A stretch of 64,000 nt of DNA from an uncultured Gammaproteobacteria bacterium (GCA_913060525.1 CAJXRW010000001.1:289-64288); one strand, 5' to 3'; counted from the first letter of the stretch, positions 1 through 63,953 are shown. Made by a program: numbers and translations. Notes: generated from the letters alone by a model not told the origin.

Positions 1-12
1 TGTCAATACAGA

Positions 13-711: not shown

Positions 712-722
712 GGTAGGGCGGT

Positions 723-2078: not shown

Positions 2079-2092
2079 CCTAATTAATCAAT

Positions 2093-3289: not shown

Positions 3290-3331
3290 AATTAACTACT
3301 TTTAGAGTAATACAGCATTAATTTTGTATAT

Positions 3332-7225: not shown

Positions 7226-8073
7226 TTATGAATTTATTTAATAGATCAAAAATTGTTATTCTTGATAATAATCTTGAATATGCAGAATCTTTAGTGGGTA
7301 AGCTAAAATTTGCTTTTCCAGATTGTAGCTTCAAAATATTTACTCGTGCGCGAGATTTATTTGATAGCGCGGCAACATATTTAAATATTTCTGATGTGGT
7401 TGATAGCGTAGAAGATATATATAACAATGTGATAGATGATTATGAACAATATGGTACTCTTCATCAGCAGCTTTTAGATTGTGAGCCAACACTTTTTGTA
7501 CTCGACTTTAATTTGGGTGAAGCAAGCTCACAAAATGGTATTGGTATATCAAGAATGCTTAAAAAGCATAAAGCGAATTCATATACTATTTTACTTACAA
7601 ATTTTGCTAATCATCAAACAGGTTGCGACGCTCAAAACCGAAAGCATATAGATGGATTTGTGGCAAAAGACACTATTCTTGATCAAACAGAGGTAATGCT
7701 GAGTCGAGATGATATATTTCAAGATATTGCTTTTCATATCCAGCACGCTAGGAATAATATTTCCTATGAAAGGATTAATGAATTCAATAACATCCAATCA
7801 AAAGCAAATGCATTAACCAAACGTTTTATTTCTGGATTAAGCATTAAGTCATATTACTATATTGATTCTATTGGATCTTGTTATGCTAAATCAGATGCAC
7901 AGAATTTCATATTTAAGGTACAAGAGCGACAAATATATGAAGAATTGAAAGAAAAATACAACACTGAATGTATTTTATTTAATGCCGAATATTCTGATAT
8001 TGGTAATCATTACTGTTGTGATGTAATTTATAGTAATAACGAGTTTGTTGCTGGTTTTAAGGATATCACATGA
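7222..8073 (+). CDS. receiver-domain (response-regulator-like) protein with unknown C-terminal domain
   Basis: 283 aa. CheY-like layout: KIVILDNN, candidate phospho-acceptor in LFVLDFNLGE, ILLTNFAN (Thr), GFVAKD (Lys). The C-terminal ~130 aa has no recognisable DNA-binding motif. GTG at 7222 overlaps the kinase stop; an alternative ATG lies at 7228. Confidence 0.55.
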   Translation: MIMNLFNRSKIVILDNNLEYAESLVGKLKFAFPDCSFKIFTRARDLFDSAATYLNISDVVDSVEDIYNNVIDDYEQYGTLHQQLLDCEPTLFVLDFNLGEASSQNGIGISRMLKKHKANSYTILLTNFANHQTGCDAQNRKHIDGFVAKDTILDQTEVMLSRDDIFQDIAFHIQHARNNISYERINEFNNIQSKANALTKRFISGLSIKSYYYIDSIGSCYAKSDAQNFIFKVQERQIYEELKEKYNTECILFNAEYSDIGNHYCCDVIYSNNEFVAGFKDIT

Positions 8074-8753
8074 GTCTTTATGAAAATAGTTGGAAGCTTT
8101 ATAAAGCAGCTACAGAAAATTTAGATTTTGATTACAAGTATTATTTAGATTTTAGTCGCCATTACAAAACATTAGACTTGTGTGCTGGTTTTGGGAGAGT
8201 CTCAAATTATCTAGTTGAACATGGTGTTGATGTTACTGCAGTTGAGCTTGAAGACGAATTTATACCTTTCCTAAAACTTAATAAAGATAAAATACAACAT
8301 GCTAATATCCTTGATCTTACAGGTGACAATCAGTTTGATCGAGTTATTTCGCCATACAATAGCTTTTGCTTGTTTACTGGTAGTTCAGTAGATAAATTTT
8401 TTGATATGCTTTCTAAAGTACTTAGACCAGATGGTTTAGCAAGCATCAGCTATTATCACCAAAAGCATTGGTATCACTTAGATGAAGGTGAATGGAATTT
8501 TATTTTAGATGGTGAGGAATTTACTTATACATTCGACTTTTCTAAGGATAAATCAGACTCGTTTTGGTTAGACCGGTTTAAGTTATTATCTTCAGGGGAA
8601 GTGATCGAGCACAAATATCCAATATCAATATACGATGACTTTTCAGAGTTAGACATATATTGTAATAAATATGGTCTAGTCATGACTGAAATCGTGAAGC
8701 ATAATTATACTTTAGAGCCAGGCTGGTACGATATTATAATTAGAAAGATATGA
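8070..8753 (+). CDS. class I SAM-dependent methyltransferase
   Basis: 227 aa. Motif I TLDLCAGFGRVSNYL followed by the acidic loop VTAVELEDE, and post-I/II elements (RVISPYNSF). ATGA overlap with the upstream gene. Confidence 0.7.
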   Translation: MSLYENSWKLYKAATENLDFDYKYYLDFSRHYKTLDLCAGFGRVSNYLVEHGVDVTAVELEDEFIPFLKLNKDKIQHANILDLTGDNQFDRVISPYNSFCLFTGSSVDKFFDMLSKVLRPDGLASISYYHQKHWYHLDEGEWNFILDGEEFTYTFDFSKDKSDSFWLDRFKLLSSGEVIEHKYPISIYDDFSELDIYCNKYGLVMTEIVKHNYTLEPGWYDIIIRKI

Positions 8754-9322
8754 AAACCGTAAAAGATAGAGTTATTTTCGCGCGCAAACAGACGCGTTTA
8801 TCACAAAAGAATTTTTGTAAAACAGATAATCGTAAAGCAAAAATTGGCGAGGCAACTCTAAAGGTGGTTGAGTTAGGTTCAGACCTATCAGATAACATCT
8901 GTAACAAGTTAGTTAATCGCTTAGAAGAGCTTGGATATAAAGTTAGTAAGGAGTGGATTCTTACTGGCGTTGGTGAACTGCCACGTAAAATATCAGATAT
9001 TTATGAACGAACATCAAATGAAGCAATTTCTGAACGATTAGAGTTTATTATCAATTTTGGACAGCTAACTGAAAAAGATTATGTACTTGATTACACACCA
9101 CCAACAGTACAGGCTTGGAGAGCAGGGAAAAGAGGGGGGATCAGTAAGGAATATGCTGATAAGCTCGCAAATATGCTCGCTGAGTCAAAGAGAATTTATT
9201 TTGACTCTAGTTGGTTATTGTATGGAATAGGTGCTGCACCGACAACTAATAAAGATATTTATCTGTCTAATTCTGAGTATGTTTGTGCATGTTCAGACTC
9301 TATTAATAATAAATTACAATAA
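8750..9322 (+). CDS. putative DNA-binding protein with XRE-type helix-turn-helix
   Basis: 190 aa. N-terminal VKDRVIFARKQTRLSQKNFC resembles an XRE HTH. A second HTH-like segment lies near aa 95-130. ATGA overlap with the methyltransferase; last gene of the operon. Confidence 0.5.
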   Translation: MKTVKDRVIFARKQTRLSQKNFCKTDNRKAKIGEATLKVVELGSDLSDNICNKLVNRLEELGYKVSKEWILTGVGELPRKISDIYERTSNEAISERLEFIINFGQLTEKDYVLDYTPPTVQAWRAGKRGGISKEYADKLANMLAESKRIYFDSSWLLYGIGAAPTTNKDIYLSNSEYVCACSDSINNKLQ

Positions 9323-10274: not shown

Positions 10275-10582
10275 TGACTAAGTCAGCAGAAGAAGCACCA
10301 CTCAACTATGCGCCAATTTATGGCGCATTAGTCAGACCAGCATTGTATATGGGTATATCGATTGAATATTATCCAATTGCTTTAATGGTTGTGTGCATTT
10401 TCTATATCGGTTTTAACCCGATATACGGCCTGATTAGCTGCTTGCCTGTTTATCTGTTTGGATATTTTGTATGCAAATATGATCCAGATGGGTTTAGAGT
10501 TTTAATTGCTTATGTTCAGGTTCTATTAGATGAGGGTCGAATCAAAAAAGTTGCTGGTGCAATCACCTACGATCCGTTTTAA
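10274..10582 (+). CDS. virB3: T4SS protein VirB3
   Basis: 102 aa. Start overlaps the virB2 stop (TAATG). LVRPALYMGI followed by two TM helices. Sits between B2 and B4. Confidence 0.75.
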   Translation: MTKSAEEAPLNYAPIYGALVRPALYMGISIEYYPIALMVVCIFYIGFNPIYGLISCLPVYLFGYFVCKYDPDGFRVLIAYVQVLLDEGRIKKVAGAITYDPF

Positions 10583-10628
10583 GTGATCGACAGTTTTATT
10601 AAGTTTATATAAAAATAGAGGGTAGGGT

Positions 10629-13184
10629 ATGTTAGATAAAAATATTATGTTTGTGCGAAAGGCGCAAAAGAAGATCTCACAACGCTTACCAAAAATGCAT
10701 TTTGTCGCACCAAATGTAATTCGTACTAGCGCAAATGTTCTCTTTCAAGTTATTAAAGTGAATGGTGTACACATCAGCACATCATCAACTGACAATATCA
10801 ATGAAAAAGATAACGAATGGCATAGTATTGTCACTTCTTTAGATGATGAATTTCCAATTTGGGCCACAATGATCAGGCGAAAAGTTAGCTCTGATTTTAA
10901 TGTCAGTAACTATAGTGAATTTACACATGAATTTTCAGAAAAATACCGTAATAAATATAAGAATGCACAGCTGTATAGAAATGAGTATTACTTAACTGTT
11001 TACTATACCGGTATGACTGGTCTGGTGAAAAATATCAGCAGTATTTTTTCGAAAAAAAATGACGCAATATTTCAAACTAAGATATCTGAAGCAGTCGGGC
11101 GATTAACTTCAAAAGTAGAAGAAATCGTTACCAGGCTCGGCTCGCAGAAAAAAGATGAAGCTTTTTCAGAAAATTCATCGATTCGTGATGAGGTAACATC
11201 GGATCATTTCAATGCGCGTGTTTTAGATCAAAGAGAATGTGAGACATCAGAGATCATGTCGTTTCTAGGTACATTTGTAAATGGCTTGGAATCGCTCAGC
11301 TATAAATATCCAACTGAGCCAATGTTCGGCTATCGTGATACTCAAATACCTGAGCCTGGGTTTTCAAAATTTCCATACGGCAATATCGGCGAGTTTTTGG
11401 GACAGAATGAGCCGGCTTTTGGTGATAAGCGATATTTTGCTTTTAAGCATACCGATGGTTCGAAAAAAATCGGTAATATCTTGTCAATCAAAAAATATGG
11501 ATCTGGCACAACACCAATTACTTTTCATCAGTTGATGGCTTTAGATTGCGAGTTTATGTACACCGTTTCATTTGCGCCAATGGAAACAAAAAAAGCGGAA
11601 CAAGAAACACGTAAAAAACTAGCAAAAATGAAAAATGCTAAAGACAAGGCCAAGTCACAACAAGCAGCGATTGAAATGCTTGAAGATGATATCGCATCAG
11701 AGCGTGTGTTGCTCGGTAGCTCGCATTGCTCGCTAATGGTGTTAGCAGACAACAAAGAAGAACTAAATAGTCATACTAACCAGGTCATTAAGCTTTATGG
11801 CCAGAATGATTTTCGCGCGTTTCCCGAAGAAATTAACCATATTTCTACATTTTGGGCGCAATTTCCTGGCAACACCAAATACATTAAACGTGAACGTCTA
11901 TTAACATCAGATGTATTTTGCCATTTTTTTCCACTGCATAATTTCCCGACTGGCCACACACATCAGACGCACTTAGGCGAAGGATTGTGTTTAGTTGATA
12001 CTCCGTCCAAAACACCCATGTTCTTCAATTATCATGAACCAGAAAAGGGCGCATCTAAAAACGATAAATGTCCAGGATCAGGTGTCTTGGTAGGTGGTAA
12101 TAAATCAGGTAAAACTACGTTGCTCTTGGCGATGGATGCTTTAGCTGAAAAATATAATCAAAAGACTTACTTTTTTGATCGAGATGGCGGTGGCGCAATA
12201 TACATGTGGGCCACAGGTAATAAGTATTATGAATTTGATCAAGATAACATTAGAAATATTAATCTTAATGTCTTTTCATTACCAGATACGCGCGTCAATC
12301 GTGCTTTCATCGCGAATTGGTTATGCGGTATTTCGAGGGATGAAGACGAAAGTAGTGTTCCTTCTGATGTTAAAGAATTATTCACTGAAGTAGTGAATTA
12401 TGCTTATACGCTTGATTTAGAACAACGTTCATTATCCAATGTATTAAATTCGTATGTTGGGCCAGATTTTAAACGCTGGTCAAACTTGCGTTTATGGCTG
12501 AGAGGTGATGACTATCGAGATGATGGCGCATTCGCTGAATATTTTGATAATGATATTGATGAGTTAGATTTCGATTCGCAAATGAAAATTGGCTTTGACA
12601 TGACACACGTTCTTGGTAAAGGCGATATGCGTTTAGGATCAGCATTATTATCATATAATTTCCATCGAATTTTGACGCAAAAAAGAGAGCCAGGGCAACC
12701 AATTTGTATCATCCTTGATGAGGGTTGGTTTATGTTGCGAGACCCTTGGATTGCTAACATGCTTGAAGAATTAATCCCAACAATCCGTAAAGAAAACATT
12801 TATATCATTGTGGCCACTCAGTCACCTGAGACCGTCTTAGCATCACCTGTTGCAGATCAGTTTTTAGCAAATATTGCATTTTCTATTTTCTTCGCTAATT
12901 CAAAAGCAGATTCCAAAGTCTATGAAAAATATAATATTGATGTTGCTGAGTTTCAAACAATTAAAACTACGCCTAGGGCAAAACGCCACTTTATTTTTAA
13001 GCAAGGGCATGAATCAGCTGTTTGTAAATTGGATCTTTCAGGCTTTAACCGTGAGTTGGCGGTGCTTTCAACTAATACGGATTCGAAAGAAGTTGCTAGG
13101 CGAATCCGCAAAAAGCACGGTCTTAATCCAAAACCAGAATTATGGTTAGAATCATTCTATGAAGAATTAGGGGTATCGAAATGA
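10629..13184 (+). CDS. virB4: T4SS ATPase VirB4
   Basis: 851 aa. Walker A GGNKSGKTTLL and Walker B CIILDEGW. Size and synteny fit. Confidence 0.93.
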   Translation: MLDKNIMFVRKAQKKISQRLPKMHFVAPNVIRTSANVLFQVIKVNGVHISTSSTDNINEKDNEWHSIVTSLDDEFPIWATMIRRKVSSDFNVSNYSEFTHEFSEKYRNKYKNAQLYRNEYYLTVYYTGMTGLVKNISSIFSKKNDAIFQTKISEAVGRLTSKVEEIVTRLGSQKKDEAFSENSSIRDEVTSDHFNARVLDQRECETSEIMSFLGTFVNGLESLSYKYPTEPMFGYRDTQIPEPGFSKFPYGNIGEFLGQNEPAFGDKRYFAFKHTDGSKKIGNILSIKKYGSGTTPITFHQLMALDCEFMYTVSFAPMETKKAEQETRKKLAKMKNAKDKAKSQQAAIEMLEDDIASERVLLGSSHCSLMVLADNKEELNSHTNQVIKLYGQNDFRAFPEEINHISTFWAQFPGNTKYIKRERLLTSDVFCHFFPLHNFPTGHTHQTHLGEGLCLVDTPSKTPMFFNYHEPEKGASKNDKCPGSGVLVGGNKSGKTTLLLAMDALAEKYNQKTYFFDRDGGGAIYMWATGNKYYEFDQDNIRNINLNVFSLPDTRVNRAFIANWLCGISRDEDESSVPSDVKELFTEVVNYAYTLDLEQRSLSNVLNSYVGPDFKRWSNLRLWLRGDDYRDDGAFAEYFDNDIDELDFDSQMKIGFDMTHVLGKGDMRLGSALLSYNFHRILTQKREPGQPICIILDEGWFMLRDPWIANMLEELIPTIRKENIYIIVATQSPETVLASPVADQFLANIAFSIFFANSKADSKVYEKYNIDVAEFQTIKTTPRAKRHFIFKQGHESAVCKLDLSGFNRELAVLSTNTDSKEVARRIRKKHGLNPKPELWLESFYEELGVSK

Positions 13185-37801: not shown

Positions 37802-38677
37802 ATGGCTAAAAACTACTTAATTGAGCGTTACGTTGAGCACCTGACTTCTCAGGATAAATCACAGTCCACGATTATAAGCTATCGTTCAGATTTGTATTTA
37901 TTTGCAAAGTGGTTTGAACAAGTCAACCATGAGGAATTGAAAGCACATACCATTACACCAACAGACTTAAGAGCCTATAAACAGTATTTAATTGATTACC
38001 CATTTAAGCCCATGACCATTAATCGCAAAATATCAGTCATTAATTTATTTGTCATTTGGTTATTAGATACAGATCGAATCAAATCACGTATTCCACTACC
38101 TAAGTTAGTTAAGCTAACCCAAACTGCTCCTAAGTGGCTGGATAAAAATCAACAACACTTTATGCTACGTCATTTAGAAAAACATGGTAATGAGCGAGAC
38201 CTAGCTATCGTTAGACTTCTATTAAATACTGGCTTGCGTGTTAATGAGCTAATTTCTTTGCAATGGAGCGATGTATCACTATCAACAAAAAAAGGAATGA
38301 TTCACATCCGTTACAGTAAAGCAGCCCGCTATCGAGATATACCGCTAAATAAGGATGCTCGATTTGCTTTAACTGCATTAGGGTATAGCTCTAAATCTAA
38401 ATCATCTGAACCAATTTTTGAAGGTCAAAAAGCCAGGCTTGATGTACGAGGTGTTCAATTGTTATTAAAGCGTCGATTCAAGCATACTGACTTAGACTTT
38501 ATTTCACCCCATATATTACGCCATACATTTTGTAAAAACTTAATGAATGCAGGTGTAAGTTTAGAGAAAGTCGCTTTATTAGCAGGTCATGAAAGTCTTG
38601 ATACTACTAAAGTTTATTGTCAACCTTCATTTAATGATCTAACCGAATCAGTTGAGCGAATTGGAGAGCAAGAGTAA
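37802..38677 (+). CDS. tnpI: tyrosine recombinase, TnpI-like cointegrate resolvase
   Basis: 291 aa. N-terminal SAM-like core-binding domain, then catalytic R (TGLRVNEL), HILRHTF, GHESLDTTKVY. Stop abuts the tnpA start (TAAATG). Confidence 0.85.
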   Translation: MAKNYLIERYVEHLTSQDKSQSTIISYRSDLYLFAKWFEQVNHEELKAHTITPTDLRAYKQYLIDYPFKPMTINRKISVINLFVIWLLDTDRIKSRIPLPKLVKLTQTAPKWLDKNQQHFMLRHLEKHGNERDLAIVRLLLNTGLRVNELISLQWSDVSLSTKKGMIHIRYSKAARYRDIPLNKDARFALTALGYSSKSKSSEPIFEGQKARLDVRGVQLLLKRRFKHTDLDFISPHILRHTFCKNLMNAGVSLEKVALLAGHESLDTTKVYCQPSFNDLTESVERIGEQE

Positions 38678-41600
38678 ATGAGCCAATTTCATATTTTACA
38701 TTACCACGAAATCGAGAAATTTAAACAACCACCACGCTTCTCCAAAGATGAACGTATGAAAGTCTTTGTTCTCGATCTTCAGATTAATAATCTGCTAAAA
38801 GGTCTAAAACGATCTGATGAAAATAAAGTAGGTTTTTTATTGCAACTGGGGTATTACAAGACCACAAACAAGTTCTTTAGAGCTGAATATTTTAAGTCGG
38901 CTGATATTTATTATGTTAGCCAATTACTCAATGTAAATGTTAGTCCAAAATCAATGAAATTGAATTATAAAGACAGGACGCGTACTGAACATACCAAGAA
39001 GGTATTAGATTGTTTAGGGCATGAACCTTATTTACATTATGAGGACTTAATTGAAGAGAATGTGGTTGAGATGGTGGAAAAGCAACAGCATCCAAAACAA
39101 ATTATGTTCTCGATTATTGATTTATTACGAGAAAAAAGAATATCAATACCCAGTTATGATTATTTTTGTAAAGTATTAACGGATCATTTCAGGGACTTTG
39201 AAAAGTCATTATTAGATAAGCTGGAAAGTTTATTATCAGGACAACAATGCCAAGCATTTGATGACTTGTTAGATGAAGGTAAACCATTTGAACATTCTTT
39301 ACTAACAAAACTCAAAACAATTAATCAATCGGTTCAGCCTGTGAATATCAAAGTATCAATTCAGTATTTTTTGATTCTTAAACGACTTTACCAAGAACTC
39401 AAAGATGTTATTGATCAATTGGGCATTTCAACAGAAGCCATTAACTTTTATGCTGGTTGGGTTAAAAAGGCGCAAACCAGAACACAAATACAAGAAATCA
39501 TGAATGAGAACAGACAGCGCTTGTATTTGTTATCATTCATTATTTTCCAGCACCGTCACTATGAAGATACGCTGCTGGATATACATCAGAAATGTGTTGG
39601 TCAGTATATTAAACAGATTGAAAAGGAAGTTGACCAAACAAAACTACAAGATGCGGATGAAAAAGATAGTTTAGGCGAATCAGTTATAAATGGTTATCAA
39701 TCTAAAGCGGAAACCATTAAGAATGCACGCCAGGTCATCCATGAGCCATCTATCGAAAATGATAAGAAAATTGATATCCTAAAATTTATTATTCCTGAGA
39801 CCCAAACAAAACAAGAAACAGAATCAGATCAAGCAGTTGAACAACTTCAAGAAGAATTATCAGATGCAATTAAACAAGCCAAACGCTTTAATATAATGCT
39901 TGCAAATGCAAGCAAATTACATCAGCGAGTAGCTGATATTGTCAAACACTTAAGCTTTACCTCAAATGATCCTGTATTAGAAAAAGCCATTGTTTATTAC
40001 CAAACACAAAGTAAAGTTACAAAAAATGCGCCAACTGATCATCTGAGTAAAGAGGAGTATGAGGCAGTATTCAATAATGGTAAATTTGAAATACAGCTTT
40101 ATAAAAGTATTTTATTTACCCATATTTATGAGGGGATTAGATCAGGATCAATAAGCTTAATTCATTCCTACAAATATTTACCTATCGAAAGTTATATGTT
40201 AGATGAGGAAAATTGGCATTTGCATCGTGATCATATCCTGCAACGGTTAGGATTAGAGAAATTTGCGGATATAGAGGCATTACTAACCAAATTAAAGCAA
40301 CAACTTGATCCTACTTACCTTAGAGTGAATGAAAATATTCTCAAACGAGAAAATAATTATGTTCGATTTACCAATGGTAAAGGAAAATTCATTATTAATA
40401 CCCCGCCAATTGAAAAGCCAGATTATCAAGGTTTAGCTAAGCTATTTAGCGAGCATGAGAATATTCCAATTCTTAATATTATTAGACGTATGGATCTCTA
40501 CACTAATATCTCATCCTCTTTTCGTCACTATAAAGTTAGAAATAATCTGATAAAACCCTCGAGGGAGATTTTCTATGCAGGTTTATTTGCATTAGCAAGC
40601 AATATGGGAGCCTACCAATTATCCAATACATCCATAGGGATTAATTATGATAAATTAGCCCATGCCATTACTTGGTACTTCACCTTGGATAATCTATATG
40701 AAATTAATGAAATGATATTAGATTTCATGCAAAAACTAGAGGTAACCAATCTATTTAAGAAAGAGAAAAATTTACTTCACTCATCAAGCGATGCGAAAAA
40801 ACGCATTGTTACTGCTGAATCATTAAATGCTAATTATTCATATAAATATTTTGGTCAAGGCAAAGGTTCAAACGTCTATATGTTTGTTGATGAACGAGGC
40901 TTCTTTTTTTATTCCAATGTCTTTAGTAGTGCTGAAAGAGACGCGGCTTATGTTATAGATGGTCTCATGCACAGCAATAGTATCAAGGTTGACATACATT
41001 CAACCGATACCCATGGTTACAGTGAAATGGTGTTTGCTTTAAGCCACCTACTGGGTATTACATTTGCACCACGGATAGCTAATATACAAGAGCAGGTATT
41101 ATCTTATTTTGATTATCCTGAAAGTCTTCTGGAAAATACCAATTTTCGAATCATACCAACACACCCAATCAATCTAAGCTCTATAAAAAAGCATTGGGAA
41201 TTGATATTAAGACTATTAGCTAGCATCAAAACAAAGAACTTCAAAGCTTCTACAATTTTGAAGCGTTTATCAACTTATACTAAGCAACACGCTTTGCAGC
41301 AAGCTATAAAAGAATTTGGAAAGATAATTAAGTCTATTTTTATTCTTGAATATATTGATAACGTTACCTTGCGCCAAGATATAGAAAAGCAACTCAACAA
41401 GGGCGAGCTAGCTAACCGTTTCTCAGGGGTTGTTTCATTTGCAAATAACCAAGAAATTACTCAAGTACATCGAGAAGACCAAGAAATATCAGCCATGTGT
41501 AAGCTCATAGTACAAAACATGATTATCGCCTGGAACTATATTGAATTGACCAAAATAATTATGCGATCACAATCAAAAGAAGAAAGAGATAAATTAATTA

Positions 41601-41731
41601 AAAATATAAAGGAACTATCTATTATCTCATGGCAGCATATCAATATGTTTGGGCTATATGACTTCAGCTCACTTGAAGCTGGAAATGACTCGGAATTTGA
41701 TCTTGATCAGATATTGGCTTTTCAGGCATAA
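38678..41731 (+). CDS. tnpA: Tn3-family DDE transposase
   Basis: 1017 aa. Hallmark C-terminal catalytic region DIHSTDTHGYSEMVFALSHLLGITFAPRI, and a size typical of TnpA(Tn3). Confidence 0.93.
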   Translation: MSQFHILHYHEIEKFKQPPRFSKDERMKVFVLDLQINNLLKGLKRSDENKVGFLLQLGYYKTTNKFFRAEYFKSADIYYVSQLLNVNVSPKSMKLNYKDRTRTEHTKKVLDCLGHEPYLHYEDLIEENVVEMVEKQQHPKQIMFSIIDLLREKRISIPSYDYFCKVLTDHFRDFEKSLLDKLESLLSGQQCQAFDDLLDEGKPFEHSLLTKLKTINQSVQPVNIKVSIQYFLILKRLYQELKDVIDQLGISTEAINFYAGWVKKAQTRTQIQEIMNENRQRLYLLSFIIFQHRHYEDTLLDIHQKCVGQYIKQIEKEVDQTKLQDADEKDSLGESVINGYQSKAETIKNARQVIHEPSIENDKKIDILKFIIPETQTKQETESDQAVEQLQEELSDAIKQAKRFNIMLANASKLHQRVADIVKHLSFTSNDPVLEKAIVYYQTQSKVTKNAPTDHLSKEEYEAVFNNGKFEIQLYKSILFTHIYEGIRSGSISLIHSYKYLPIESYMLDEENWHLHRDHILQRLGLEKFADIEALLTKLKQQLDPTYLRVNENILKRENNYVRFTNGKGKFIINTPPIEKPDYQGLAKLFSEHENIPILNIIRRMDLYTNISSSFRHYKVRNNLIKPSREIFYAGLFALASNMGAYQLSNTSIGINYDKLAHAITWYFTLDNLYEINEMILDFMQKLEVTNLFKKEKNLLHSSSDAKKRIVTAESLNANYSYKYFGQGKGSNVYMFVDERGFFFYSNVFSSAERDAAYVIDGLMHSNSIKVDIHSTDTHGYSEMVFALSHLLGITFAPRIANIQEQVLSYFDYPESLLENTNFRIIPTHPINLSSIKKHWELILRLLASIKTKNFKASTILKRLSTYTKQHALQQAIKEFGKIIKSIFILEYIDNVTLRQDIEKQLNKGELANRFSGVVSFANNQEITQVHREDQEISAMCKLIVQNMIIAWNYIELTKIIMRSQSKEERDKLIKNIKELSIISWQHINMFGLYDFSSLEAGNDSEFDLDQILAFQA

Positions 41732-55146: not shown

Positions 55147-56319
55147 ATGTCACGAGTCGATACAAATATCAAAATTATTAGGTTCATTCAATCCAATGTT
55201 AATTTAAAAGAATATTCTGGTTTTGGTGGATTACACAAAATCATGACTAAAGATCAACACCAGGAGCTAAAGAACATTTTAGGCCCTGATGTATATAAAA
55301 ATGTAATGGCCAGCTGTAAGACTGCCTATTACACACATAAAGATATTATCAGTTTTATTTATCAGTCTTTAGTAAAAATGGGTTTTACTGGTGGCAAGCT
55401 ACTAGAGCCAGCCTGCGGACACGGTGCTTTTATCTTTAATATGCCAAGCAACTTAATCGAAAACTGTATTATCCACGCAGTTGAATTGGATAGATTAAGC
55501 GCAAGAATTACAAAAGCAATTTGCCCTTATGCTAAAATACTAAATCACGGTTTTGAAGCCACTAAATTTAAAGCTAATACTTTTGATGCAATAGTCGGTA
55601 ATCCCCCATATGGTAGCCAGACATTAATTGATAGCCAATTTTCAGATATAAACGGTATGGCCCTGCATCATTTTTTCACGGCTAAAAGTGTGCATCTTTT
55701 GAAAGATAAAGGTGTTATGGCGTTCGTATTACCTCAATACTGCTTTGATAATCTACATGATCACCCTCGTCATATTATGGCGCAGCATGGCTCATTAATT
55801 GCTGCTTTTAGATTACCAGACAACATGTTTGATAATGCAAAAGTAACAATCGATATTGTTTTTTATACCAAACAAAAACTTAACAATATTGCATTTACAG
55901 AAGTTAAAAACATTCAAGTTAAAGGCCATAAATTAAGAATGAATGAATATTACGTTAATCATCCTGAAAACATCCTGGGGGAGCTTGATACTTGCAATAT
56001 GTACGGCCAACGTATCGGCTTAACTGTAAAATCAAGTGATGATAAAGAAACCATTTTTAAGCAGCTGTCACAAAAAATTGATGGTCTGCCTGTATGTATC
56101 GACAACAAGAAAAATACAACTGATTTTGATGTGTTCGCAAGCATTGACCAGGCGTTAGAAAAGCTTAAACAAAAACAAGCAACGCAAAATGAATTACAAG
56201 CCAAACTAACCGATTTTGAAATCGAAAAAATTATTTTCTTAAAACAGGCCCTACTTGAACAAGAAAAAAGCTTTAGAGAGCTACAAAATCAAATCAAAAC
56301 AACCATTAATCAAATTTAA
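55147..56319 (+). CDS. orphan N6-adenine DNA methyltransferase (gamma-type, Eco57I/TaqI-like N6_Mtase)
   Basis: 390 aa. Motif I LLEPACGHGAFIF precedes motif IV IVGNPPYG. Coiled-coil C-terminus. No adjacent restriction endonuclease recognised. Confidence 0.8.
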   Translation: MSRVDTNIKIIRFIQSNVNLKEYSGFGGLHKIMTKDQHQELKNILGPDVYKNVMASCKTAYYTHKDIISFIYQSLVKMGFTGGKLLEPACGHGAFIFNMPSNLIENCIIHAVELDRLSARITKAICPYAKILNHGFEATKFKANTFDAIVGNPPYGSQTLIDSQFSDINGMALHHFFTAKSVHLLKDKGVMAFVLPQYCFDNLHDHPRHIMAQHGSLIAAFRLPDNMFDNAKVTIDIVFYTKQKLNNIAFTEVKNIQVKGHKLRMNEYYVNHPENILGELDTCNMYGQRIGLTVKSSDDKETIFKQLSQKIDGLPVCIDNKKNTTDFDVFASIDQALEKLKQKQATQNELQAKLTDFEIEKIIFLKQALLEQEKSFRELQNQIKTTINQI

Positions 56320-57351: not shown

Positions 57352-57645
57352 ATGTCTGATTCTCTTTCTAAAACTGACTTGGTTAATTGTTTAGTTGAAA
57401 ACTGCAAAGCTTATAGCTCCAAAACAGATGCTAAAAAAGCAATTGATGCGGTGCTTGGCTGTATAGAGAAAAACTTATCGGAAGGTAAAGACATTAATAT
57501 CATTGGTTTTGGGAAATGGGAGCTTAGAAATAGAAAATCAAGACAGGGCCGGAATCCCCAAACTGGACAAGTGGTACAAATAGCAGCATCAAAGACTATT
57601 GGGTTCAAACCGTCATCTAACATCAAGAAACTAATTAATAGCTAA
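57352..57645 (+). CDS. hup: HU/IHF-family nucleoid-associated DNA-binding protein
   Basis: 97 aa. LSKTDLVNCLVE..., IIGFGKWELRNRKSRQGRNPQTGQVVQIAASKTIGFKPS matches the HU beta-arm motif (GFG.F....R..R.GRNP.TG..I.I). Confidence 0.9.
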   Translation: MSDSLSKTDLVNCLVENCKAYSSKTDAKKAIDAVLGCIEKNLSEGKDINIIGFGKWELRNRKSRQGRNPQTGQVVQIAASKTIGFKPSSNIKKLINS

Positions 57646-58218: not shown

Positions 58219-59148
58219 TTATAAATTATTTAGATTAAATTCGATTTGCTCCTCGTCTGGTAATGAGTAAATCACTGTTGTATCAATAGAACTATGGCCC
58301 ATCAATCCCTGCAGGCTGACAATATCATGATTGCTTGTTGAGTAATAGTTTTTACCAAAGGTGTGGCGCAAGGTGTGTGGTGATATATTTAATCGATCAA
58401 TTTTTGAGCGTGTGGCTAAATTATTCACCATTTTTTGAATGGATCTAACTGATAGTCGCTGCTTGCGCTCAGATAAAAAAAGTGGATCTGCTTCGTTAAA
58501 ACAATCTGGTGCATATTTCTCTCTATAAACCATGTAATCATCTAAGATTTTTCTGAGGCGGCCACTTAGTATTACTTCACGTTCTTTGTTACCTTTGCCA
58601 TGAATAATTAATTTGCCAGACCTTGCATTGACTAGCACATCACCCACATTGAGATCAACCACCTCCCCTACTCTTAGGCCAGCATTTAGCATTAAATATA
58701 AAATAGTGGTGTTGCGATCTTTAATGGTTCGCTTTGTGTCTGCAGCTAACTGTAAGATTAAGTTAATTTCACGCTGAACCATTCCTTTTGGGGCAGTCAC
58801 TGGCTTTTGTCGTTTCAATAACTTTATATTCCTACTAAGATCATTTTTAATTAGGCCCATATCGAATAACCAACCCATAAAATGACGAATCACATGTAAG
58901 TGACGATTAATGGTTGTGACGCGCATTTTCAAACGGTGATACAAATCATCTTTAAATAACTTAATATGGGACTCATTCACCTTGAATAAATCCACCTCTA
59001 AAAACGCAATTAGCTTCCGAATACTGGCCAGATAATTTTTAATGGTGTTTTTTGAATAGTCAGATTGATACAAATACATTTGATACCGATCAATTAAATC
59101 CGCATAATGATTTTTATCCACAACTGGAAAACTTAATAAATCACTCAT
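58219..59148 (-). CDS. tyrosine recombinase XerC/XerD family (candidate plasmid multimer resolvase)
   Basis: 309 aa. Core-binding domain plus catalytic residues AGLRVGEV, HTLRHTFGKNY and MGHSSIDTTVIY. Confidence 0.88.
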   Translation of the reverse strand: MSDLLSFPVVDKNHYADLIDRYQMYLYQSDYSKNTIKNYLASIRKLIAFLEVDLFKVNESHIKLFKDDLYHRLKMRVTTINRHLHVIRHFMGWLFDMGLIKNDLSRNIKLLKRQKPVTAPKGMVQREINLILQLAADTKRTIKDRNTTILYLMLNAGLRVGEVVDLNVGDVLVNARSGKLIIHGKGNKEREVILSGRLRKILDDYMVYREKYAPDCFNEADPLFLSERKQRLSVRSIQKMVNNLATRSKIDRLNISPHTLRHTFGKNYYSTSNHDIVSLQGLMGHSSIDTTVIYSLPDEEQIEFNLNNL

Positions 59149-59249
59149 AATTGTTTATACGCCATGTAGGTATAGCCACTAATTTCTGACATTTAATTGT
59201 AACTGACATTTAACTTTGGCCTGTTTCTGACATTTAAGAATGGCACGAT

Positions 59250-60767
59250 TTATATGCAACTTTCTATGAGGTTCTGGATAATCTCTTCTGCTTTTTTAAA
59301 AGCTGACTCTTTATCAACTTTTATCTCAACTCCTATGATTTTCTCAACAACTTCAACAAGGTTTTCAGCGTGTATATTTAATTCAATAGCCCCAGAGACA
59401 TTTTCATCATTATCTTTACAATACACTATTCCTCTAAAGTATTCAGGCTCCCCTCCATGCCGCCACTGGTCACACTTATAGGTCAATATTCTTGCCGGCT
59501 CAAATGGTTTTATTGGTTTCCAATAAAATTGGTTTGCATCTCTATTATTATCTGTATGCCGAATTGGATATATTGGTGGTATTGTATTTATTTCTAGAGC
59601 TTTGAGCCCCATATTCATAGACACTCTATCTTGTAGGGTTTTCATTAAAATTGTAGAACCTAGCATTTGTGTGGCTTGAACAGTCCATTTTCCTTGTGGT
59701 GGTTTTGGTGGACTGGGCAATATAGGTAATTCAATATCCGTATTCCCACTTTCTGTATTTTCTTCAGGCATTATCAATAAATCACCTTTAGCAATTATAT
59801 TTACCAAAACATCTTTCCCTGGATAAGTACCTATATTTCTAACGTCGAAACAAAACTCGAGGCCAAAAGTATTCTTATTTAAATTATTGTCTAGGTTAGC
59901 TAGTATTGTTTTACAACCTTCTATCCATTCTGGATATTCTTCCTGTTTATATTTTTGGATTTTATCTTCTGGTGCTGAATGATAAACTTTTCCTGCATGT
60001 AGGATATTTCTATATGCAGATCCAATAATTCTTTTTTCAAGAACATTTTTCTCCCTATCAAAATCTGATTCCATAGGAAAGTGAATTTTTAACCTATTGA
60101 TCAAGTCATTAATTTCATCAGTGGATAGTGGTAAATACTCCACATGCTGATGAACTATTTTTGCAATTTCATTTTTATTTTTATCGATGCATACGATAGA
60201 TGGTTTAAGCTTAGTGTCTTTAAGCTTGTTAATTTCTTTGAGAAGTTTATTATTCTCTTTTTCAAGCTCTGAAGATTCAGGTTCTAATAACCATTCATCA
60301 GGGATTTGGTCAAATTTCACATCAACAGTCTTAGCTGATACCATTGGTCCAGTATCATTAGTAAGGATTCTAATTTCGCTTTCTGGGAAATCATTTTTGT
60401 ACGAACAAATTGTGCCAATAATTTGATCATCTTTTTCGTTATAGTCCAGCATACCTGCCTGACTTGGGTCAGGCCTATATTTTGGTAAAAGCATTAACTT
60501 AACCAATTGGCTATCATTTTTTATTATTTTATCACCATTAATAATAATATCTTTTATATCAGCAGATGTTGATTTTGCTCGTTTTTGAATTCTTCCTCGA
60601 GCTGAATCTTTTAATGTATCTATTTCTCTCTGTACAGCTCTACATATTATCAAATTTATTTCTGAAAAATCTGACCATTGTGACCAATCAAGTTGCGTCA
60701 AAGACTTACATTGTATAAATATATTTGTATCTACAAACAAATATATGGAACCCTTACTCATTACCAT
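59250..60767 (-). CDS. PIN-like-domain protein with large unknown C-terminal region
   Basis: 505 aa. N-terminal IYLFVDTNIFIQC ... QREIDTLK ... ILTNDTGPM gives the acidic residue pattern of PIN/PIN-like nucleases. Then a coiled-coil, followed by ~300 aa with no recognised domain. Confidence 0.55.
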   Translation of the reverse strand: MVMSKGSIYLFVDTNIFIQCKSLTQLDWSQWSDFSEINLIICRAVQREIDTLKDSARGRIQKRAKSTSADIKDIIINGDKIIKNDSQLVKLMLLPKYRPDPSQAGMLDYNEKDDQIIGTICSYKNDFPESEIRILTNDTGPMVSAKTVDVKFDQIPDEWLLEPESSELEKENNKLLKEINKLKDTKLKPSIVCIDKNKNEIAKIVHQHVEYLPLSTDEINDLINRLKIHFPMESDFDREKNVLEKRIIGSAYRNILHAGKVYHSAPEDKIQKYKQEEYPEWIEGCKTILANLDNNLNKNTFGLEFCFDVRNIGTYPGKDVLVNIIAKGDLLIMPEENTESGNTDIELPILPSPPKPPQGKWTVQATQMLGSTILMKTLQDRVSMNMGLKALEINTIPPIYPIRHTDNNRDANQFYWKPIKPFEPARILTYKCDQWRHGGEPEYFRGIVYCKDNDENVSGAIELNIHAENLVEVVEKIIGVEIKVDKESAFKKAEEIIQNLIESCI

Positions 60768-61300
60768 TTCCTTGTAAATTCATCCACTACATGCTCATCT
60801 GTAAAATTAAGGTATATAGATGTAGTTGTTAGCCTATCGTGACCTAGTATTTTTTGTACTGTTGCTAATGATATGCCTTTTTGTAAAGCGAGCGTTGCAA
60901 AAGTATGTCTTAATATATGTGGTGTAATGGTTTGAGATATTTGAGCTTTGTTTGCAACATTTTTAACAATCTTTTGTACTTGTCTAGCACCAACTGGCCA
61001 TTTATCATGAATAGCAAAATAATGTTCAAGAAGTGTTTGAACTCTTTTTGACATGGGGACAACTCGTTTCTTAGTCTTCTTGCCATGTGGTCCACCTTTA
61101 CCATTTACTCTAATGGATTTTTGTTGCCACATAATATTTTGTGGTGTGAGACTACATAATTCTGAAACTCTTAGTCCTGTATCAACCAAAGTCCAAATAA
61201 TTAATTTTTCCTGGGCAGTTTCACAAACCTGACATATCTTATCTGCTTCTTCTGCTCTAAGAGGCTCTCTAATAAATTGATAAGCCATTTTTAATACCAC
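60761..61300 (-). CDS. short tyrosine recombinase (catalytic domain only)
   Basis: 179 aa. TGLRVSELCSL, HILRHTFATLAL, LGHDRLTTTSIY. Lacks the usual N-terminal core-binding domain. Its 3' end overlaps the PIN-like gene by 7 nt. Confidence 0.8.
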   Translation of the reverse strand: MVLKMAYQFIREPLRAEEADKICQVCETAQEKLIIWTLVDTGLRVSELCSLTPQNIMWQQKSIRVNGKGGPHGKKTKKRVVPMSKRVQTLLEHYFAIHDKWPVGARQVQKIVKNVANKAQISQTITPHILRHTFATLALQKGISLATVQKILGHDRLTTTSIYLNFTDEHVVDEFTRKW

Positions 61301-61306
61301 CTTGCA

Positions 61307-61482
61307 ATAAGTTCGCTTTGTACTAAATTTAACGATAATAGTTCGCTTTACATGGATTTAACCATGATCATCAAAAACAGTCTACCAAATACCATTTTTA
61401 CTGACATGTTGGGCAATCATGTTTTTATTTATGAGAGCAATCAAATTTATGGTAGTTCGCAATATTATGCGGAAGGCGAACT
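61307..61482. promoter_or_regulatory. candidate recombination (res-like) site / divergent promoter region with four TAGTTCGC motifs
   Basis: Direct copies AAGTTCGCTTTG (61309-61320) and TAGTTCGCTTTA (61339-61350) are spaced 30 bp apart. An inverted pair AGTTCGC (61454-61460) / GCGAACT (61476-61482) is separated by 15 bp. Lies between the recombinase and transposase genes. Confidence 0.4.
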
Positions 61483-61500
61483 TGGAAATAGATTTTTAGA

Positions 61501-62934
61501 ATGGCTATAAAATCAGCATTAGAAAAATATGCTATCATAAAACCCTATCTTGATGATGTATCCTCAATTGTATCGATAAGCAAAAATAATGGGATATCAT
61601 TAAGGACATTAAATCGCTGGATCAATGGATATCGAAATAATGGACTAGATGGTATCGTACCAAAAAACAACCTCCCCAGGAAAAAGAAAATAGATGAAGA
61701 AGTAAAACAGTTAATCCAAGGGCTTTGGCTAAAAGGGGAATGCAAATCAATAGCCTCTCTCCATAGGCAACTGAAAAATTATTGTGAGATTAAAAAAATT
61801 AATCTTCCAAGTTACTCCGTAACAAGAGATATCGTTAAACAAATACCAAAACCATTAAAATATTTAGCTTCTGAAGGCACTAAAAAATATCAGGAAAAAT
61901 ATGACATCATTTATATTAGAGAAGCTGAAAGATCAAACCATATCTGGCAAGCTGACCATACAATGTTGGATATTATTATAACAGGTCCAAAAGGAAAGCT
62001 AATTAGGCCGTGGCTGACTGTTATTCAGGATGATTTTAGTAGAGGAGTTCCTGGTTATTACCTAAGTATTTCCGCACCAAGCTCACAAAATACTGCTTTA
62101 GCACTTAAGCAAGCAATATGGCGCAAATCTGAATCTAACTGGATTATTTTCGGAATACCTGAAATTTTATATACCGATCATGGCTGCGATTTTACCTCTT
62201 CGCATATTGAAGAGGCATGTGCCGCACTCAAAATTCAGCTCATTTATTCAACTGTTGGAAAGCCCCAAGGACGAGGTAAGATTGAGAGGCTCTTTTTAAC
62301 CATTAATCAGAAAGTGTTATGTGATCTTAAAGGTTATACAAAAACAAAGAAGAAAAATAAAAATCAAAAAACCATGACATTTGAAGAGTTAGATTTAAGG
62401 TTGAAGCATTTTTTCTTAAATGAATATAACAATGTTGAACACTCTGTAACGAAAGAAATACCAAATGAAAAATGGCGTTCAGAATCTTTTATCCCCAATA
62501 TTACAAGTTCACTTGAGGAGCTAGACATACTTCTTCTGATGGCTAATAAACCAAGATTAGTGCAAAGAGATGGAATAAGTTTCATGGGCTTTCGTTATAT
62601 GAACATTACTCTTTGTGGATATGTTGGTGAAAGCGTCATCATAAAATATGATCCAAGAGACTTAGCTGAAATCAGGGTTTACCACAATAATAAGTATATT
62701 TGTACCGCTGTTTCCCAAGACCTTGAATCGCATCAAATTAGCGCACAAGACATTATTAAGGCTAGAAATAAAAAACGTAAAGAATTAAATAAACTCATAA
62801 AGTCTAAGACTTCAATTATTGACAGTATTACCAAGCCTAGAAATACGATTGATAATTCCATCTCTATTGAAATAAAAGAAAGCGCTTGTACTGAAAAAAC
62901 AAAAATAAAGCTAAAAAAATATGAAAATGAATAG
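61501..62934 (+). CDS. DDE transposase, TniA / Tn552 p480 / TnsB-like (rve integrase core)
   Basis: 477 aa. N-terminal HTH (ISLRTLNRWINGYR) and a DDE triad context: IWQADHTMLD, ILYTDHGCDF, GRGKIERLF. Confidence 0.88.
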   Translation: MAIKSALEKYAIIKPYLDDVSSIVSISKNNGISLRTLNRWINGYRNNGLDGIVPKNNLPRKKKIDEEVKQLIQGLWLKGECKSIASLHRQLKNYCEIKKINLPSYSVTRDIVKQIPKPLKYLASEGTKKYQEKYDIIYIREAERSNHIWQADHTMLDIIITGPKGKLIRPWLTVIQDDFSRGVPGYYLSISAPSSQNTALALKQAIWRKSESNWIIFGIPEILYTDHGCDFTSSHIEEACAALKIQLIYSTVGKPQGRGKIERLFLTINQKVLCDLKGYTKTKKKNKNQKTMTFEELDLRLKHFFLNEYNNVEHSVTKEIPNEKWRSESFIPNITSSLEELDILLLMANKPRLVQRDGISFMGFRYMNITLCGYVGESVIIKYDPRDLAEIRVYHNNKYICTAVSQDLESHQISAQDIIKARNKKRKELNKLIKSKTSIIDSITKPRNTIDNSISIEIKESACTEKTKIKLKKYENE

Positions 62935-63787
62935 TAGCAATGAGTTTCTTGTAACCAAAGAGCACAAAAGATTTGTCGAGTTTTGTAACGCTTGTTACGA
63001 ATATGAATATATTGGCATTTGCCATGGTTATCCAGGTATAGGTAAAACCATGTCTGCCACTAAATATTCGAGACAAGATGAGATATCTGAAATCAAAATA
63101 ATAGGTGGGTCAGCTGAAGATAACCTACATGTACCCAGTGATCTTGCGGATGTTAAAACCACCTTGTTTACACCTACTCCAGGTAAAACAGTGACTTCCA
63201 ATTTTAACTTATTATCTACTAATATAATACGAACAAATCGTGTCATTATTAGTGCTAGAGAAAAAATTAATCCAATTGTAAACCCTCCTAATTGCCCATT
63301 GTTTGAGATTCGTGAATCTGCTGAGATTATTCACCCACAAAATGAATGTTGTGAAATAATAATTGTTGATGAAGCTGAGCGTTTGACTTATGCAGGTGTC
63401 GAGATGGTTAGAGATTTTTATGACCGTGATCAGATGGTAAAAGCAATCATCTTTATCGGGATGCCTGGACTTGAAAAACGAATGTCCAGATACCCACAGC
63501 TTTATTCCAGAGTTGGTTTTGTACATGAATATAAGGCAATGTCTAAAGATGAAATGATTTTTATTCTTGAGCGCTATTGGCAAAACTTAGACTCAAAGCT
63601 AAATCTAGACGATTTTGCAGATCACGAAGCTATGACGGAAGTGATTAAAATCGTGAATGGTAATTTCAGGTTACTGAATAGACTTTTCACTCAAATATCA
63701 AGGATAATGAAATTAAATAACCTATCGCATATCACCAAAGAAGTGATTGAGGCATCAAGAGAATGTTTATTAATTGGGACTAATTAA
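62921..63787 (+). CDS. AAA+ transposition ATPase, TniB / Tn552 p271-like
   Basis: 288 aa. Walker A GYPGIGKTMSA and Walker B IIIVDEAERL. Overlaps the transposase gene by 14 nt. Confidence 0.85.
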   Translation: MKMNSSNEFLVTKEHKRFVEFCNACYEYEYIGICHGYPGIGKTMSATKYSRQDEISEIKIIGGSAEDNLHVPSDLADVKTTLFTPTPGKTVTSNFNLLSTNIIRTNRVIISAREKINPIVNPPNCPLFEIRESAEIIHPQNECCEIIIVDEAERLTYAGVEMVRDFYDRDQMVKAIIFIGMPGLEKRMSRYPQLYSRVGFVHEYKAMSKDEMIFILERYWQNLDSKLNLDDFADHEAMTEVIKIVNGNFRLLNRLFTQISRIMKLNNLSHITKEVIEASRECLLIGTN

Positions 63788-63911
63788 TCGTGCCATTCTT
63801 AAATGTCAGAAACAGGACAAAATTAAATGTCAGTTACACTTAATTAAATCAAAATCAATGATAACTTTTATTATTTTTTTACATTTAGTTAAATCAAATT
63901 AGTTGCCTTAC

Positions 63912-63953
63912 AAAATTATAAATTTAAAATTTATAATTTAAGATTTATAATAA
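63912..63953. repeat. three tandem imperfect 14-bp AT-rich repeats
   Basis: AAAATTATAAATTT / AAAATTTATAATTT / AAGATTTATAATAA, just outside the right end of the TniAB element, at the window edge. Confidence 0.4.

Follow-up and report, generated by a model that had tools for sequence, protein, structure and literature searches.

A compact Tn552-like transposon with a catalytic-domain-only tyrosine recombinase, inserted upstream of a xer-like gene on a gammaproteobacterial conjugative plasmid

How does a transposon of the TniA/TniB type that encodes neither a target selector nor a serine resolvase complete its transposition, and how did it come to lie beside a recombinase gene? These questions are raised by a 4,641-bp element at positions 59198..63838 of a 64,000-nucleotide stretch of DNA from an uncultured Gammaproteobacteria bacterium (GCA_913060525.1 CAJXRW010000001.1:289-64288), a stretch that we refer to as the window herein. 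The window represents a conjugative plasmid of about 66 kb that encodes VirB4, TrbI, a coupling protein, a MobA/MobL relaxase of 2,092 amino acids (aa) and DnaB, and that has been recovered repeatedly in metagenome assemblies. An initial description made from the DNA without database searches, the sequence-only reading, had proposed an atypical TniA/TniB-type transposon with a mini tyrosine recombinase and a PIN-like protein that might hunt the recombination sites of tyrosine recombinases. The account that we consider probable after comparison with related loci is that of a compact, replicative transposon, still intact and belonging to the Tn552 branch of the Mu/Tn7 superfamily, in which the mini recombinase would act as the resolvase, the PIN-domain gene would be cargo, and the position upstream of a xer-like gene would reflect res hunting.

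Limits, ends and transposition genes of the element

Two inverted arms, 59193-59253 and 63783-63843, are 61 nt long and 93% complementary, and four intact genes lie between them, so that domain calls and arms together uphold the initial description of four genes enclosed by inverted ends. The inverted repeats proper consist of a left copy of 56 bp (59198..59253, plus strand), in which 23-bp direct repeats at 59198-59220 and 59222-59244 are presumed to be transposase-binding sites, and a right copy (63783..63838, minus strand) that matches the left at 53/56 positions and holds the equivalent sites 63792-63814 and 63816-63838. The tips read TGTAAC...GTTACA, and the motif CTGACATTTAA was found exactly five times, always at the element ends. 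Three sibling elements, L084, L094 and L124, have the same TGTAAC...GTTACA tips followed by two sites of about 23 bp per end, as in the window. The first makes up a whole Cysteiniphilum contig of 4,264 bp (1-4263; 55-nt repeat, 98%), the second spans 25-3118 (3,094 bp, three genes, inverted repeat 51/51) and the third lies at 157-7389. In addition, the region upstream of the xer-like gene in L142, a related plasmid locus without the element, equals that of the window for 33-34 nt up to 59197/59198 and is unrelated beyond. Given the sibling tips and this exact break in homology, we placed the termini at 59198 and 63838.

These limits replace the span of 59149-63865 proposed initially, shorten the inverted ends from about 65-80 bp to 56 bp, and move the left tip from 33 to 49 nt from the xer start codon. 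Where two to three repeat copies had been counted per end, two remain at each; the third left copy (59184-59197) is plasmid backbone, as it is 100% conserved in L142. Ends extended to this third repeat (TGTAGG at 59165 ... CCTTACA at 63912) were rejected, since their left flank is L142 backbone and the sibling tips are TGTAAC.

The element is flanked by TTTAAT on the left (59192..59197) and CTTAAT on the right (63839..63844), a 5/6 match, and L142 has TTTAAT at the uninterrupted site. About 30 related elements were delimited via their inverted repeats; eight of these have perfect 6-bp duplications, and three more, including the window, match at five of six positions. As judged from these flanks, a 6-bp target duplication is the rule for the family. 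The comparison with insertion-free relatives suggested at the outset fixed the left terminus through L142 and did not provide an empty site of the same plasmid: all contigs with an identical Xer protein (7/7) carry the element at the same place. L149 shows a break at the left repeat's inner edge. Neither the terminal sequence nor the reconstituted empty site turned up in scans of viral contigs, and a near-identity DNA search of the element against the plasmids of PLSDB gave no match.

The transposase gene (61501..62934, plus strand) encodes a 477-aa TniA/TnsB-type DDE enzyme with rve (3.1e-11), Mu-transpos_C (1.1e-20) and helix-turn-helix domains, a PADLOC match to TnsB (8.5e-49) and an invariant catalytic triad, D152, D226 and E262. 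Overlapping it by 14 nt is the gene for a 288-aa AAA+ partner of the TniB/p271 type (62921..63787, plus strand; AAA_22 1.7e-10; Walker A GYPGIGKT, Walker B IIVDEAE), which matches AAA_22 only and not the Pfam TniB family (PF05621). The transposase family is very large, with more than 585 matches at 40-52% identity, and consists of proteins of about 480 aa. Its nearest members are those of Legionella plasmids and chromosomes (49-53% identity), and homologues on staphylococcal plasmids are 44-46% identical over their full length. Staphylococcus accounts for 427 of the 745 PLSDB plasmids with a transposase match, and these staphylococcal relatives are of the Tn552 type. Their AAA+ partners are 40-42% identical to that of the window, and an AAA+ homologue follows tniA in nearly all of 80 related loci. 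The assignment to the TniA/TniB type, close to the p480/p271 pair of Tn552, was therefore correct.

Domain scans of all open reading frames of the element found no TniQ, TnsA or serine recombinase/Resolvase domain. The four frames fill the element except for a 212-bp intergenic region, which leaves no spare coding space, and the reported absence of TniQ and of a serine resolvase thus stands; TniQ was readily detected in a control, the Tn5053-type unit carried by L124. A serine resolvase is present in about 25 of the roughly 30 related elements. In five (L009, L011, L051, L055 and L143) the serine resolvase is accompanied by a small tyrosine recombinase, and the window, L094, L092 and L028 carry a tyrosine recombinase only. 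The lack of a serine resolvase is genuinely unusual in this family, yet not unique. The closest annotated relative, L143, occupies 4359-8993 of the Legionella pneumophila plasmid pH3-D-14 (tips TGTAAC...CTTACA) and contains genes for a cation transporter, a serine recombinase, TniA, TniB and a 194-aa catalytic-only tyrosine recombinase; the small recombinase gene recurs about 90 bp beyond the left tip of this element, and the RefSeq names of these genes are generic.

From its family membership, TniA would be expected to bind the two 23-bp sites of each 56-bp end and, together with the AAA+ protein TniB, to carry out strand transfer with a 6-bp target duplication. Because the element has no TnsA, transposition should yield cointegrates.

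The mini tyrosine recombinase and its candidate site

The gene divergent from tniA (60761..61288, minus strand) encodes a tyrosine recombinase that comprises a catalytic domain only. Within the longest reading of the frame, 179 aa, the Pfam Phage_integrase catalytic domain covers residues 14-169 (2.5e-33). As DNA homology in about 50 loci begins at 61288, this position is most likely the start and the product has 175 aa. The gene sizes given initially (477, 288, 179 and 505 aa) accordingly hold for the transposase and its partner and become 175 and, with its own most likely start, 503 aa for the recombinase and the PIN protein. The recombinase aligns to the catalytic half of XerA only (residues 103-271 of 292), has every one of the XerD catalytic residues (six: R, K, H-x-x-R, H and Y), and scores below every Xer and integron cut-off (144 versus 220 for XerA, 118 versus 335 for XerC). 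Relatives 77-87% identical to it are encoded by 51 metagenomic loci, in which DNA homology to the window ends at the start and stop codons. Since a search of the full library returned about 90 clusters at E ≤ 1e-30, nearly all of 150-220 aa, the catalytic-domain-only architecture is the norm for this clade. Smyshlyaev et al. (PMC8138268) describe all tyrosine recombinases with core-binding and catalytic domains, and literature searches turned up no specific account of a tyrosine recombinase carried by a Tn552-type element.

Upstream of the recombinase gene we identified a candidate site in two parts. Candidate site I (61310..61349, minus strand), read in the direction of the recombinase gene, is made up of an arm AAAGCGAACT at 61340-61349, a weak inverted arm at about 61332-61336 and a direct arm AAAGCGAACT at 61310-61319. 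Its general layout upstream of the gene, an arm RCGAAY followed by a nearby inverted arm and a direct arm AAAGCGAACT, is the same in all lineages compared, as is the spacing, with the direct arms exactly 30 nt apart. Candidate site II (61454..61482, minus strand) lies about 200 nt upstream of the recombinase ATG, has inverted arms AGTTCGC...GCGAACT, and is 91% identical over 33 nt to L109. It forms the outer edge of the recombinase module, in that homology among close loci with unrelated upstream partners begins exactly there, the partners beyond it being tniA, a 409-aa gene of no known family or a transposon end. Because homology starts at site II, the 212-bp divergent intergenic region is almost wholly part of the recombinase module. 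We regard site II as the candidate crossover site. The 409-aa protein, which has no Pfam match, is encoded by L089 (1204-2433), L097 (92-649), L101 (6481-7710), L105 (1706-2935) and L107 (5985-7214), where its gene is divergent from that of the mini recombinase and starts at the site II boundary, in the place taken by tniA in the transposon; it could be another mobility or plasmid function.

In the mechanism that we propose, the 175-aa recombinase would resolve cointegrates at this two-part site of about 200 bp, which fills the divergent region between its gene and tniA and would replace the serine resolvase and res of Tn552 in a layout like that of TnpI and its IRS. The recombinase gene lies inside the inverted repeats in L094, L084, L124, L051 (6518-12312) and the window. 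L094 is a minimal form of 3.1 kb with three genes only and no other recombinase. Non-autonomous derivatives, found at 3307-6132 of L092 (the same as 6555-9380 of L093) and at 936-2952 of L139, have the same ends, sites I and II and the recombinase, and have lost tniA and tniB. They add one 580-aa gene of no known function, and the L092/L093 copy is flanked by a 9-bp direct repeat, ttctaatta. The Legionella plasmid relatives, which have the closest TniA, possess their own catalytic-only tyrosine recombinase of 194-206 aa, encoded downstream of tniB. By this comparison the recombinase is a core part of the element. Since it lies within the repeats, is kept in the derivatives and recurs in the Legionella relatives, and since a gain of resolvases has been described for TnsA-less Tn7-like transposons (PMC8649781), cointegrate resolution is the favoured role, and the mini recombinase is probably a cointegrate resolvase.

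Several observations weigh against this interpretation. Most members of the family carry a serine resolvase, and in the five elements with two recombinases the tyrosine enzyme may have a role other than resolution. No studied precedent for a recombinase without a core-binding domain was found in the literature. Furthermore, most of the 51 close relatives of the recombinase have no adjacent TniA/TniB and are found on plasmid backbones, with ParA, Rep, VapBC or a serine resolvase as neighbours and often a single transposon end nearby; the recombinase module could thus be mainly a plasmid multimer-resolution unit. Because of these many backbone copies and of the elements with a serine resolvase, a serious rival has to be considered: that the recombinase and its site are a portable unit for plasmid multimer resolution and module exchange, merely carried by transposition modules or used by them as a point of entry by recombination, in which case host recombination, or serine resolvases supplied in trans, would resolve the cointegrates. 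The conservation of the recombinase at 77-87%, versus TniA partners only 41-49% identical to that of the window, suggests separate histories for the two modules, and the sharp boundary at site II fits exchange by site-specific recombination. Nevertheless, the recombinase lies inside the repeats of the three-gene L094, where it is the only one, and is retained in the non-autonomous L092/L093 derivative with its flanking direct repeat. Its site also occupies the classic res position between divergent genes, and the window element is without other means of resolving cointegrates in cis. On balance we judge the portable-unit rival to be somewhat unlikely.

The element offers a very small and well-delimited model (3.1-4.6 kb, three core genes) for how TnsA-less Mu/Tn7-type elements complete replicative transposition, and the same model serves the question of how Tn552-type elements locate resolution sites without TniQ. 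If active on its short GCGAAC-type arms, the mini recombinase would be the smallest working tyrosine recombinase and a compact recombination tool.

Target choice upstream of the xer-like gene

The gene next to the left tip (58219..59148, minus strand) lies outside the element and encodes a 309-aa Xer-like tyrosine recombinase of the plasmid, with SAM-like and catalytic domains, as expected of the full-length external recombinase described initially. Homologues 84% and 78% identical to this protein occur on related plasmids without the element, and the region upstream of the gene is the target of the insertion. Using profiles built for this analysis, we annotated serine and tyrosine recombinases across all fetched loci. 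A recombinase gene was found within 100 bp of 10 of the 58 usable termini (30 delimited elements), compared with 0.08 expected if such genes were only as frequent as the other recombinase genes of these flanks (6 in 278 kb). All ten adjacent genes turn their 5' end to the element. They divide evenly into tyrosine recombinase genes (L011, L014, L046, L055 and the window) and serine recombinase genes, five of each. In the metagenomic siblings the recombinase-proximal tip lies 4 bp (L103, L112) or 63 bp (L124) from the start codon of a serine resolvase. Some of the small tyrosine recombinases counted as external may belong to neighbouring sibling elements. The suggestion that the element is a res hunter directed at recombinase sites thus finds support at the level of the family, whose statistically strong habit the position in the window fits, and these positions support res hunting by a TniQ-less family at tyrosine as well as serine recombinase loci. 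An account of Tn552-II (PMC12486829) contained nothing helpful on res targeting.

In the window, the element would have reached its spot 49 bp upstream of the xer-like gene by res hunting into recombinase-bound sites without the help of TniQ. We also put forward, tentatively and as a possibility only, a broader version in which the recombinase and its site are a portable module that resolves cointegrates throughout the subfamily and for its non-autonomous derivatives, and that swaps transposition modules and backbones by crossover at site II, coupled with res hunting at sites bound by tyrosine recombinases. If true, the transposase-ATPase pair would sense the architecture of recombinase-DNA complexes and not one particular protein; that the AAA+ protein senses DNA bent by a recombinase is a guess on our part. 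The family statistics themselves widen res hunting from serine to tyrosine recombinase loci.

One sibling contains a second transposition unit. At 1950-6950 of L124, inside its element, lies a genuine Tn5053-type unit with a 559-aa TniA, TniB (PF05621), TniQ (PF06527) and a serine resolvase, and this unit replaces the recombinase N-terminus, the site region and the tniA N-terminus of the sibling element. It is possible that a classic res hunter inserted here, at the proposed recombinase site or close to it, and that about 1 kb was lost. As about 1 kb was replaced and the insertion is not clean, we downgraded this unit as proof that the recombinase site is a res-hunter target.

The backbone immediately upstream of the xer-like gene (59155..59197) is identical in L142. 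It includes a half-site, ACATGGCGTATAA, at 59155-59167 and an end-like pseudo-site at 59165-59197, which has a 14-nt exact match to the inner transposase site of the element (20/24 overall), in the same orientation and abutting the left tip, a match reached in 0/200 shuffles. No partner of this pseudo-site was found in L140, another related plasmid locus, or in L142. The pseudo-site could be the remnant of an end from an earlier insertion, or else a decoy for the transposase. Its presence in L142, before any insertion, and the variability of the xer-parA interval among related plasmids (brnTA in one, parDE in another) are what would be expected if the position had nothing to do with Xer and the element had been drawn by the pseudo-site or had landed by chance in a variable region. 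We consider this unlikely, as no other element among the 30 tested has an end-like flank, whereas a position beside the 5' end of a recombinase gene is the family rule, and a relic end at this place would itself imply repeated insertion at the same recombinase-proximal site. Insertion beside end-like sequences, seen in the window alone, was likewise rejected as a rule of the family.

The related plasmids carry a further feature upstream of their xer-like genes, at a distance of about 100 nt: a perfect 13-6-13 palindrome, ACATTGCGTATAA-TATGGC-TTATACGCAATGT, at about 7870-7905 in L140 and about 3190-3225 in L142. In both, a half-site matching the palindrome also sits just before the xer ATG, and the palindrome is likely the core site of the Xer-like recombinase. 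A search of the whole window did not find it; only the half-site at 59155-59167 is kept. Because the palindrome of the related plasmids is missing, the insertion history at this site is not clean: either the lineage already differed, or a deletion accompanied insertion despite the near-perfect duplication. This weighs against the proposed account of the element, as do the mismatch in the target duplication (TTTAAT versus CTTAAT) and the fact that the window element, itself only presumed to be mobile, is known from one site only, on seven contigs.

On the other side of the element, towards parA, direct repeats ACA(C/T)TTA(A/G)TTAAATCAAA are found at 63836-63853 and 63881-63898, 45 bp apart, the first of which spans the insertion point. 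These repeats may be an operator, a centromere or accessory recombinase sites. Once reconstituted, the target corresponds to one of a pair of 19-bp direct repeats, ACATTTARTTAAATCAAA, separated by 45 bp.

Other features of these plasmids were recorded in passing. In L140, the interval 1272-7082 encodes a TerB-domain protein, a BrxC/BrxD-like ATPase and a helicase, adjoins brnTA and the Xer-like gene, and looks like a defence cluster. The window encodes an orphan DNA methyltransferase of the Eco57I/N6_Mtase type (55147-56319) with no restriction partner nearby, followed by a 302-aa protein without a family match and a HU-like gene (57352-57645). A second transposon lies at 37802-41731, where a Tn3-family transposase gene (38678-41731; DDE_Tnp_Tn3 1.2e-106) is directly preceded by the gene for a 291-aa tyrosine recombinase (37802-38677), a layout like that of TnpI in Tn4430.

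The PIN cargo gene and comparison with known systems

The remaining gene of the element (59250..60761, minus strand, with an open frame to 60767) encodes a PIN_4 nuclease (Pfam, 4.6e-10). Its start is most likely at 60761, which gives 503 aa and overlaps the recombinase stop codon (TAATG), and we propose that the two genes are co-transcribed and translationally coupled. An exact look-up of the 505-aa protein returned no record, because gene callers use the 503-aa start. Neither PADLOC nor NCBIfam gave a match, and a sequence search of solved structures was empty. We found 96 full-length homologues at about 35% identity; of the acidic PIN residues, D13, E48 and D113 never vary, and D138 is almost invariant. 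The predicted structure (mean predicted local distance difference test score 86) has a PIN domain of the SMG6/Nmd4 type followed by helices and a beta-sandwich. Its top fold matches were PIN domains and beta-sandwich proteins, and no TniQ/TnsD-like or DNA-targeting match was returned.

The cargo slot, bounded by the recombinase stop codon on one side and by the left repeat on the other, varies among the related elements: L094 has nothing there, L084 has a DUF2971 gene, L051 has a serine resolvase gene, and L116, L126 and L092 have still other genes, unrelated to the PIN gene. L051 (6518-12312, from an uncultured proteobacterium) additionally carries cargo downstream of tniB, a eukaryote-like Ser/Thr kinase with ankyrin repeats (10310-12241). 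Six genomic contexts of PIN homologues were examined, and none (0/6) has TniA/TniB beside the gene; the neighbours are AbiEi/AbiEii, a type I restriction-modification operon enclosing the gene, QatABCD and an HsdS fragment, and two homologues are solitary among housekeeping genes. The embedding of PIN nucleases within operons for type I restriction-modification has been described before (PMC5499597). Since its relatives are never found with TniA/TniB and often lie by defence genes, and since the slot is variable, we regard the PIN gene as a passenger and not a target selector. The encoded protein is most likely a stand-alone nuclease toxin or defence gene product; counting against the defence label are its basis in six contexts and the absence of a PADLOC match. 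In the proposed mechanism, the gene would be a passenger in this variable slot. Of the two roles offered in the sequence-only reading, replacement of the missing target-selection or accessory function and toxin or defence passenger, the second survives. That the protein replaces a TniQ/TnsD selector or another transposition accessory is very improbable and already largely refuted by comparison, for although the gene lies inside a TniQ-less element and appears coupled to the recombinase, its slot is empty or filled by unrelated genes in six relatives, none of its homologues examined accompanies TniA/TniB, its modelled fold resembles an SMG6-like PIN RNase with a beta-sandwich, and Tn552-type elements hunt res sites without any PIN-like protein. 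With this cargo, the element would supply conjugative plasmids with a probable toxin or defence nuclease; the hosts of these plasmids are freshwater Gammaproteobacteria that have been little studied and are related to Legionella and Cysteiniphilum.

Among known systems, Tn552 of Staphylococcus aureus, described by Rowland and Dyke in 1990 and in later work, reportedly encodes the p480 transposase, the p271 ATP-binding protein and the BinL resolvase. The window element resembles it in having a transposase of about 480 aa (rve, Mu-transpos_C) whose gene overlaps that of a downstream AAA+ protein (about 270-290 aa), long inverted ends in which transposase sites of about 23 bp are repeated and whose tips are TGT...ACA, no TnsA and no TniQ, and insertion beside resolution sites. 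In the Tn552 family the target duplication is 6 to 7 bp; the flanks TTTAAT/CTTAAT (5/6) would be its counterpart here, and eight relatives have a perfect 6 bp. The window element differs in that the serine resolvase and res are absent; in their place is a 175-aa catalytic-domain-only tyrosine recombinase, encoded divergently from tniA and accompanied by a two-part candidate site. Moreover, the ends are 56 bp rather than about 116 bp, the cargo is a PIN nuclease rather than bla, and the host is a low-GC Gram-negative conjugative plasmid.

Elements of the Tn5053/Tn402 family, with TniA, TniB, TniQ and TniR, are reported to have been termed 'res site hunters' by Minakhina et al. in 1999, a study cited in PMC8649781. 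Like these, the window element is TnsA-less, probably replicative, equipped with a resolution module and inserted next to a recombinase gene. Unlike these, it has no TniQ and no serine TniR, its ATPase lacks the PF05621 match that the Tn5053-type unit of L124 gave, and the TniA of that unit is only 26% identical. Closer in the matter of resolution is TnpI with its IRS, from the Tn3-family transposon Tn4430, where, according to Vanhooff et al. in 2006, a tyrosine recombinase of 284 aa with a core-binding domain reportedly serves as transposon resolvase. The candidate site of the mini recombinase likewise appears to lie just upstream of the recombinase gene and to combine an inverted arm pair with direct accessory arms. 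In contrast to TnpI, the mini recombinase has no core-binding domain; the Tn4430 transposase is of the Tn3 type, and the arm sequences are unrelated.

Benler et al. 2021 (PMC8649781) reported that TnsA-less Tn7-like transposons typically gain tyrosine or serine resolvases ('tnsR') and that PIN toxins are common cargo. The initial statement that this gene combination had not been described was thus overstated, as elements of this general composition have been catalogued. The window element shares with that set a TnsB-type transposase, a TnsC-family ATPase, arrays of end sites and a resolvase in the place of TnsA. It differs in that TnsD/TniQ, which the survey required or mostly found (73-97%), is lacking along with TnsA, in that the recombinase is catalytic-domain-only with a defined candidate site, and in that the minimal element is only 3.1 kb. 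A catalytic-only recombinase with its site, a three-gene minimal element and the hunting of tyrosine-recombinase sites were not found in PMC8649781. Tyrosine-recombinase-derived proteins on Tn7-like elements, one of them at an element-borne site, are also known from the XerC-like/dif-like system of Tn6022 and from TnsF (PMC11014353). Both of these proteins are full length, unlike the mini recombinase. TnsF is an inactive recombinase reused for targeting with TniQ, whereas the mini recombinase keeps all catalytic residues and has no TniQ to work with. Elements of this general kind are known, and the novelty lies in the recombinase module, in the minimal form with three genes, in the derivatives without tniA and tniB, and in targets next to tyrosine recombinase genes.

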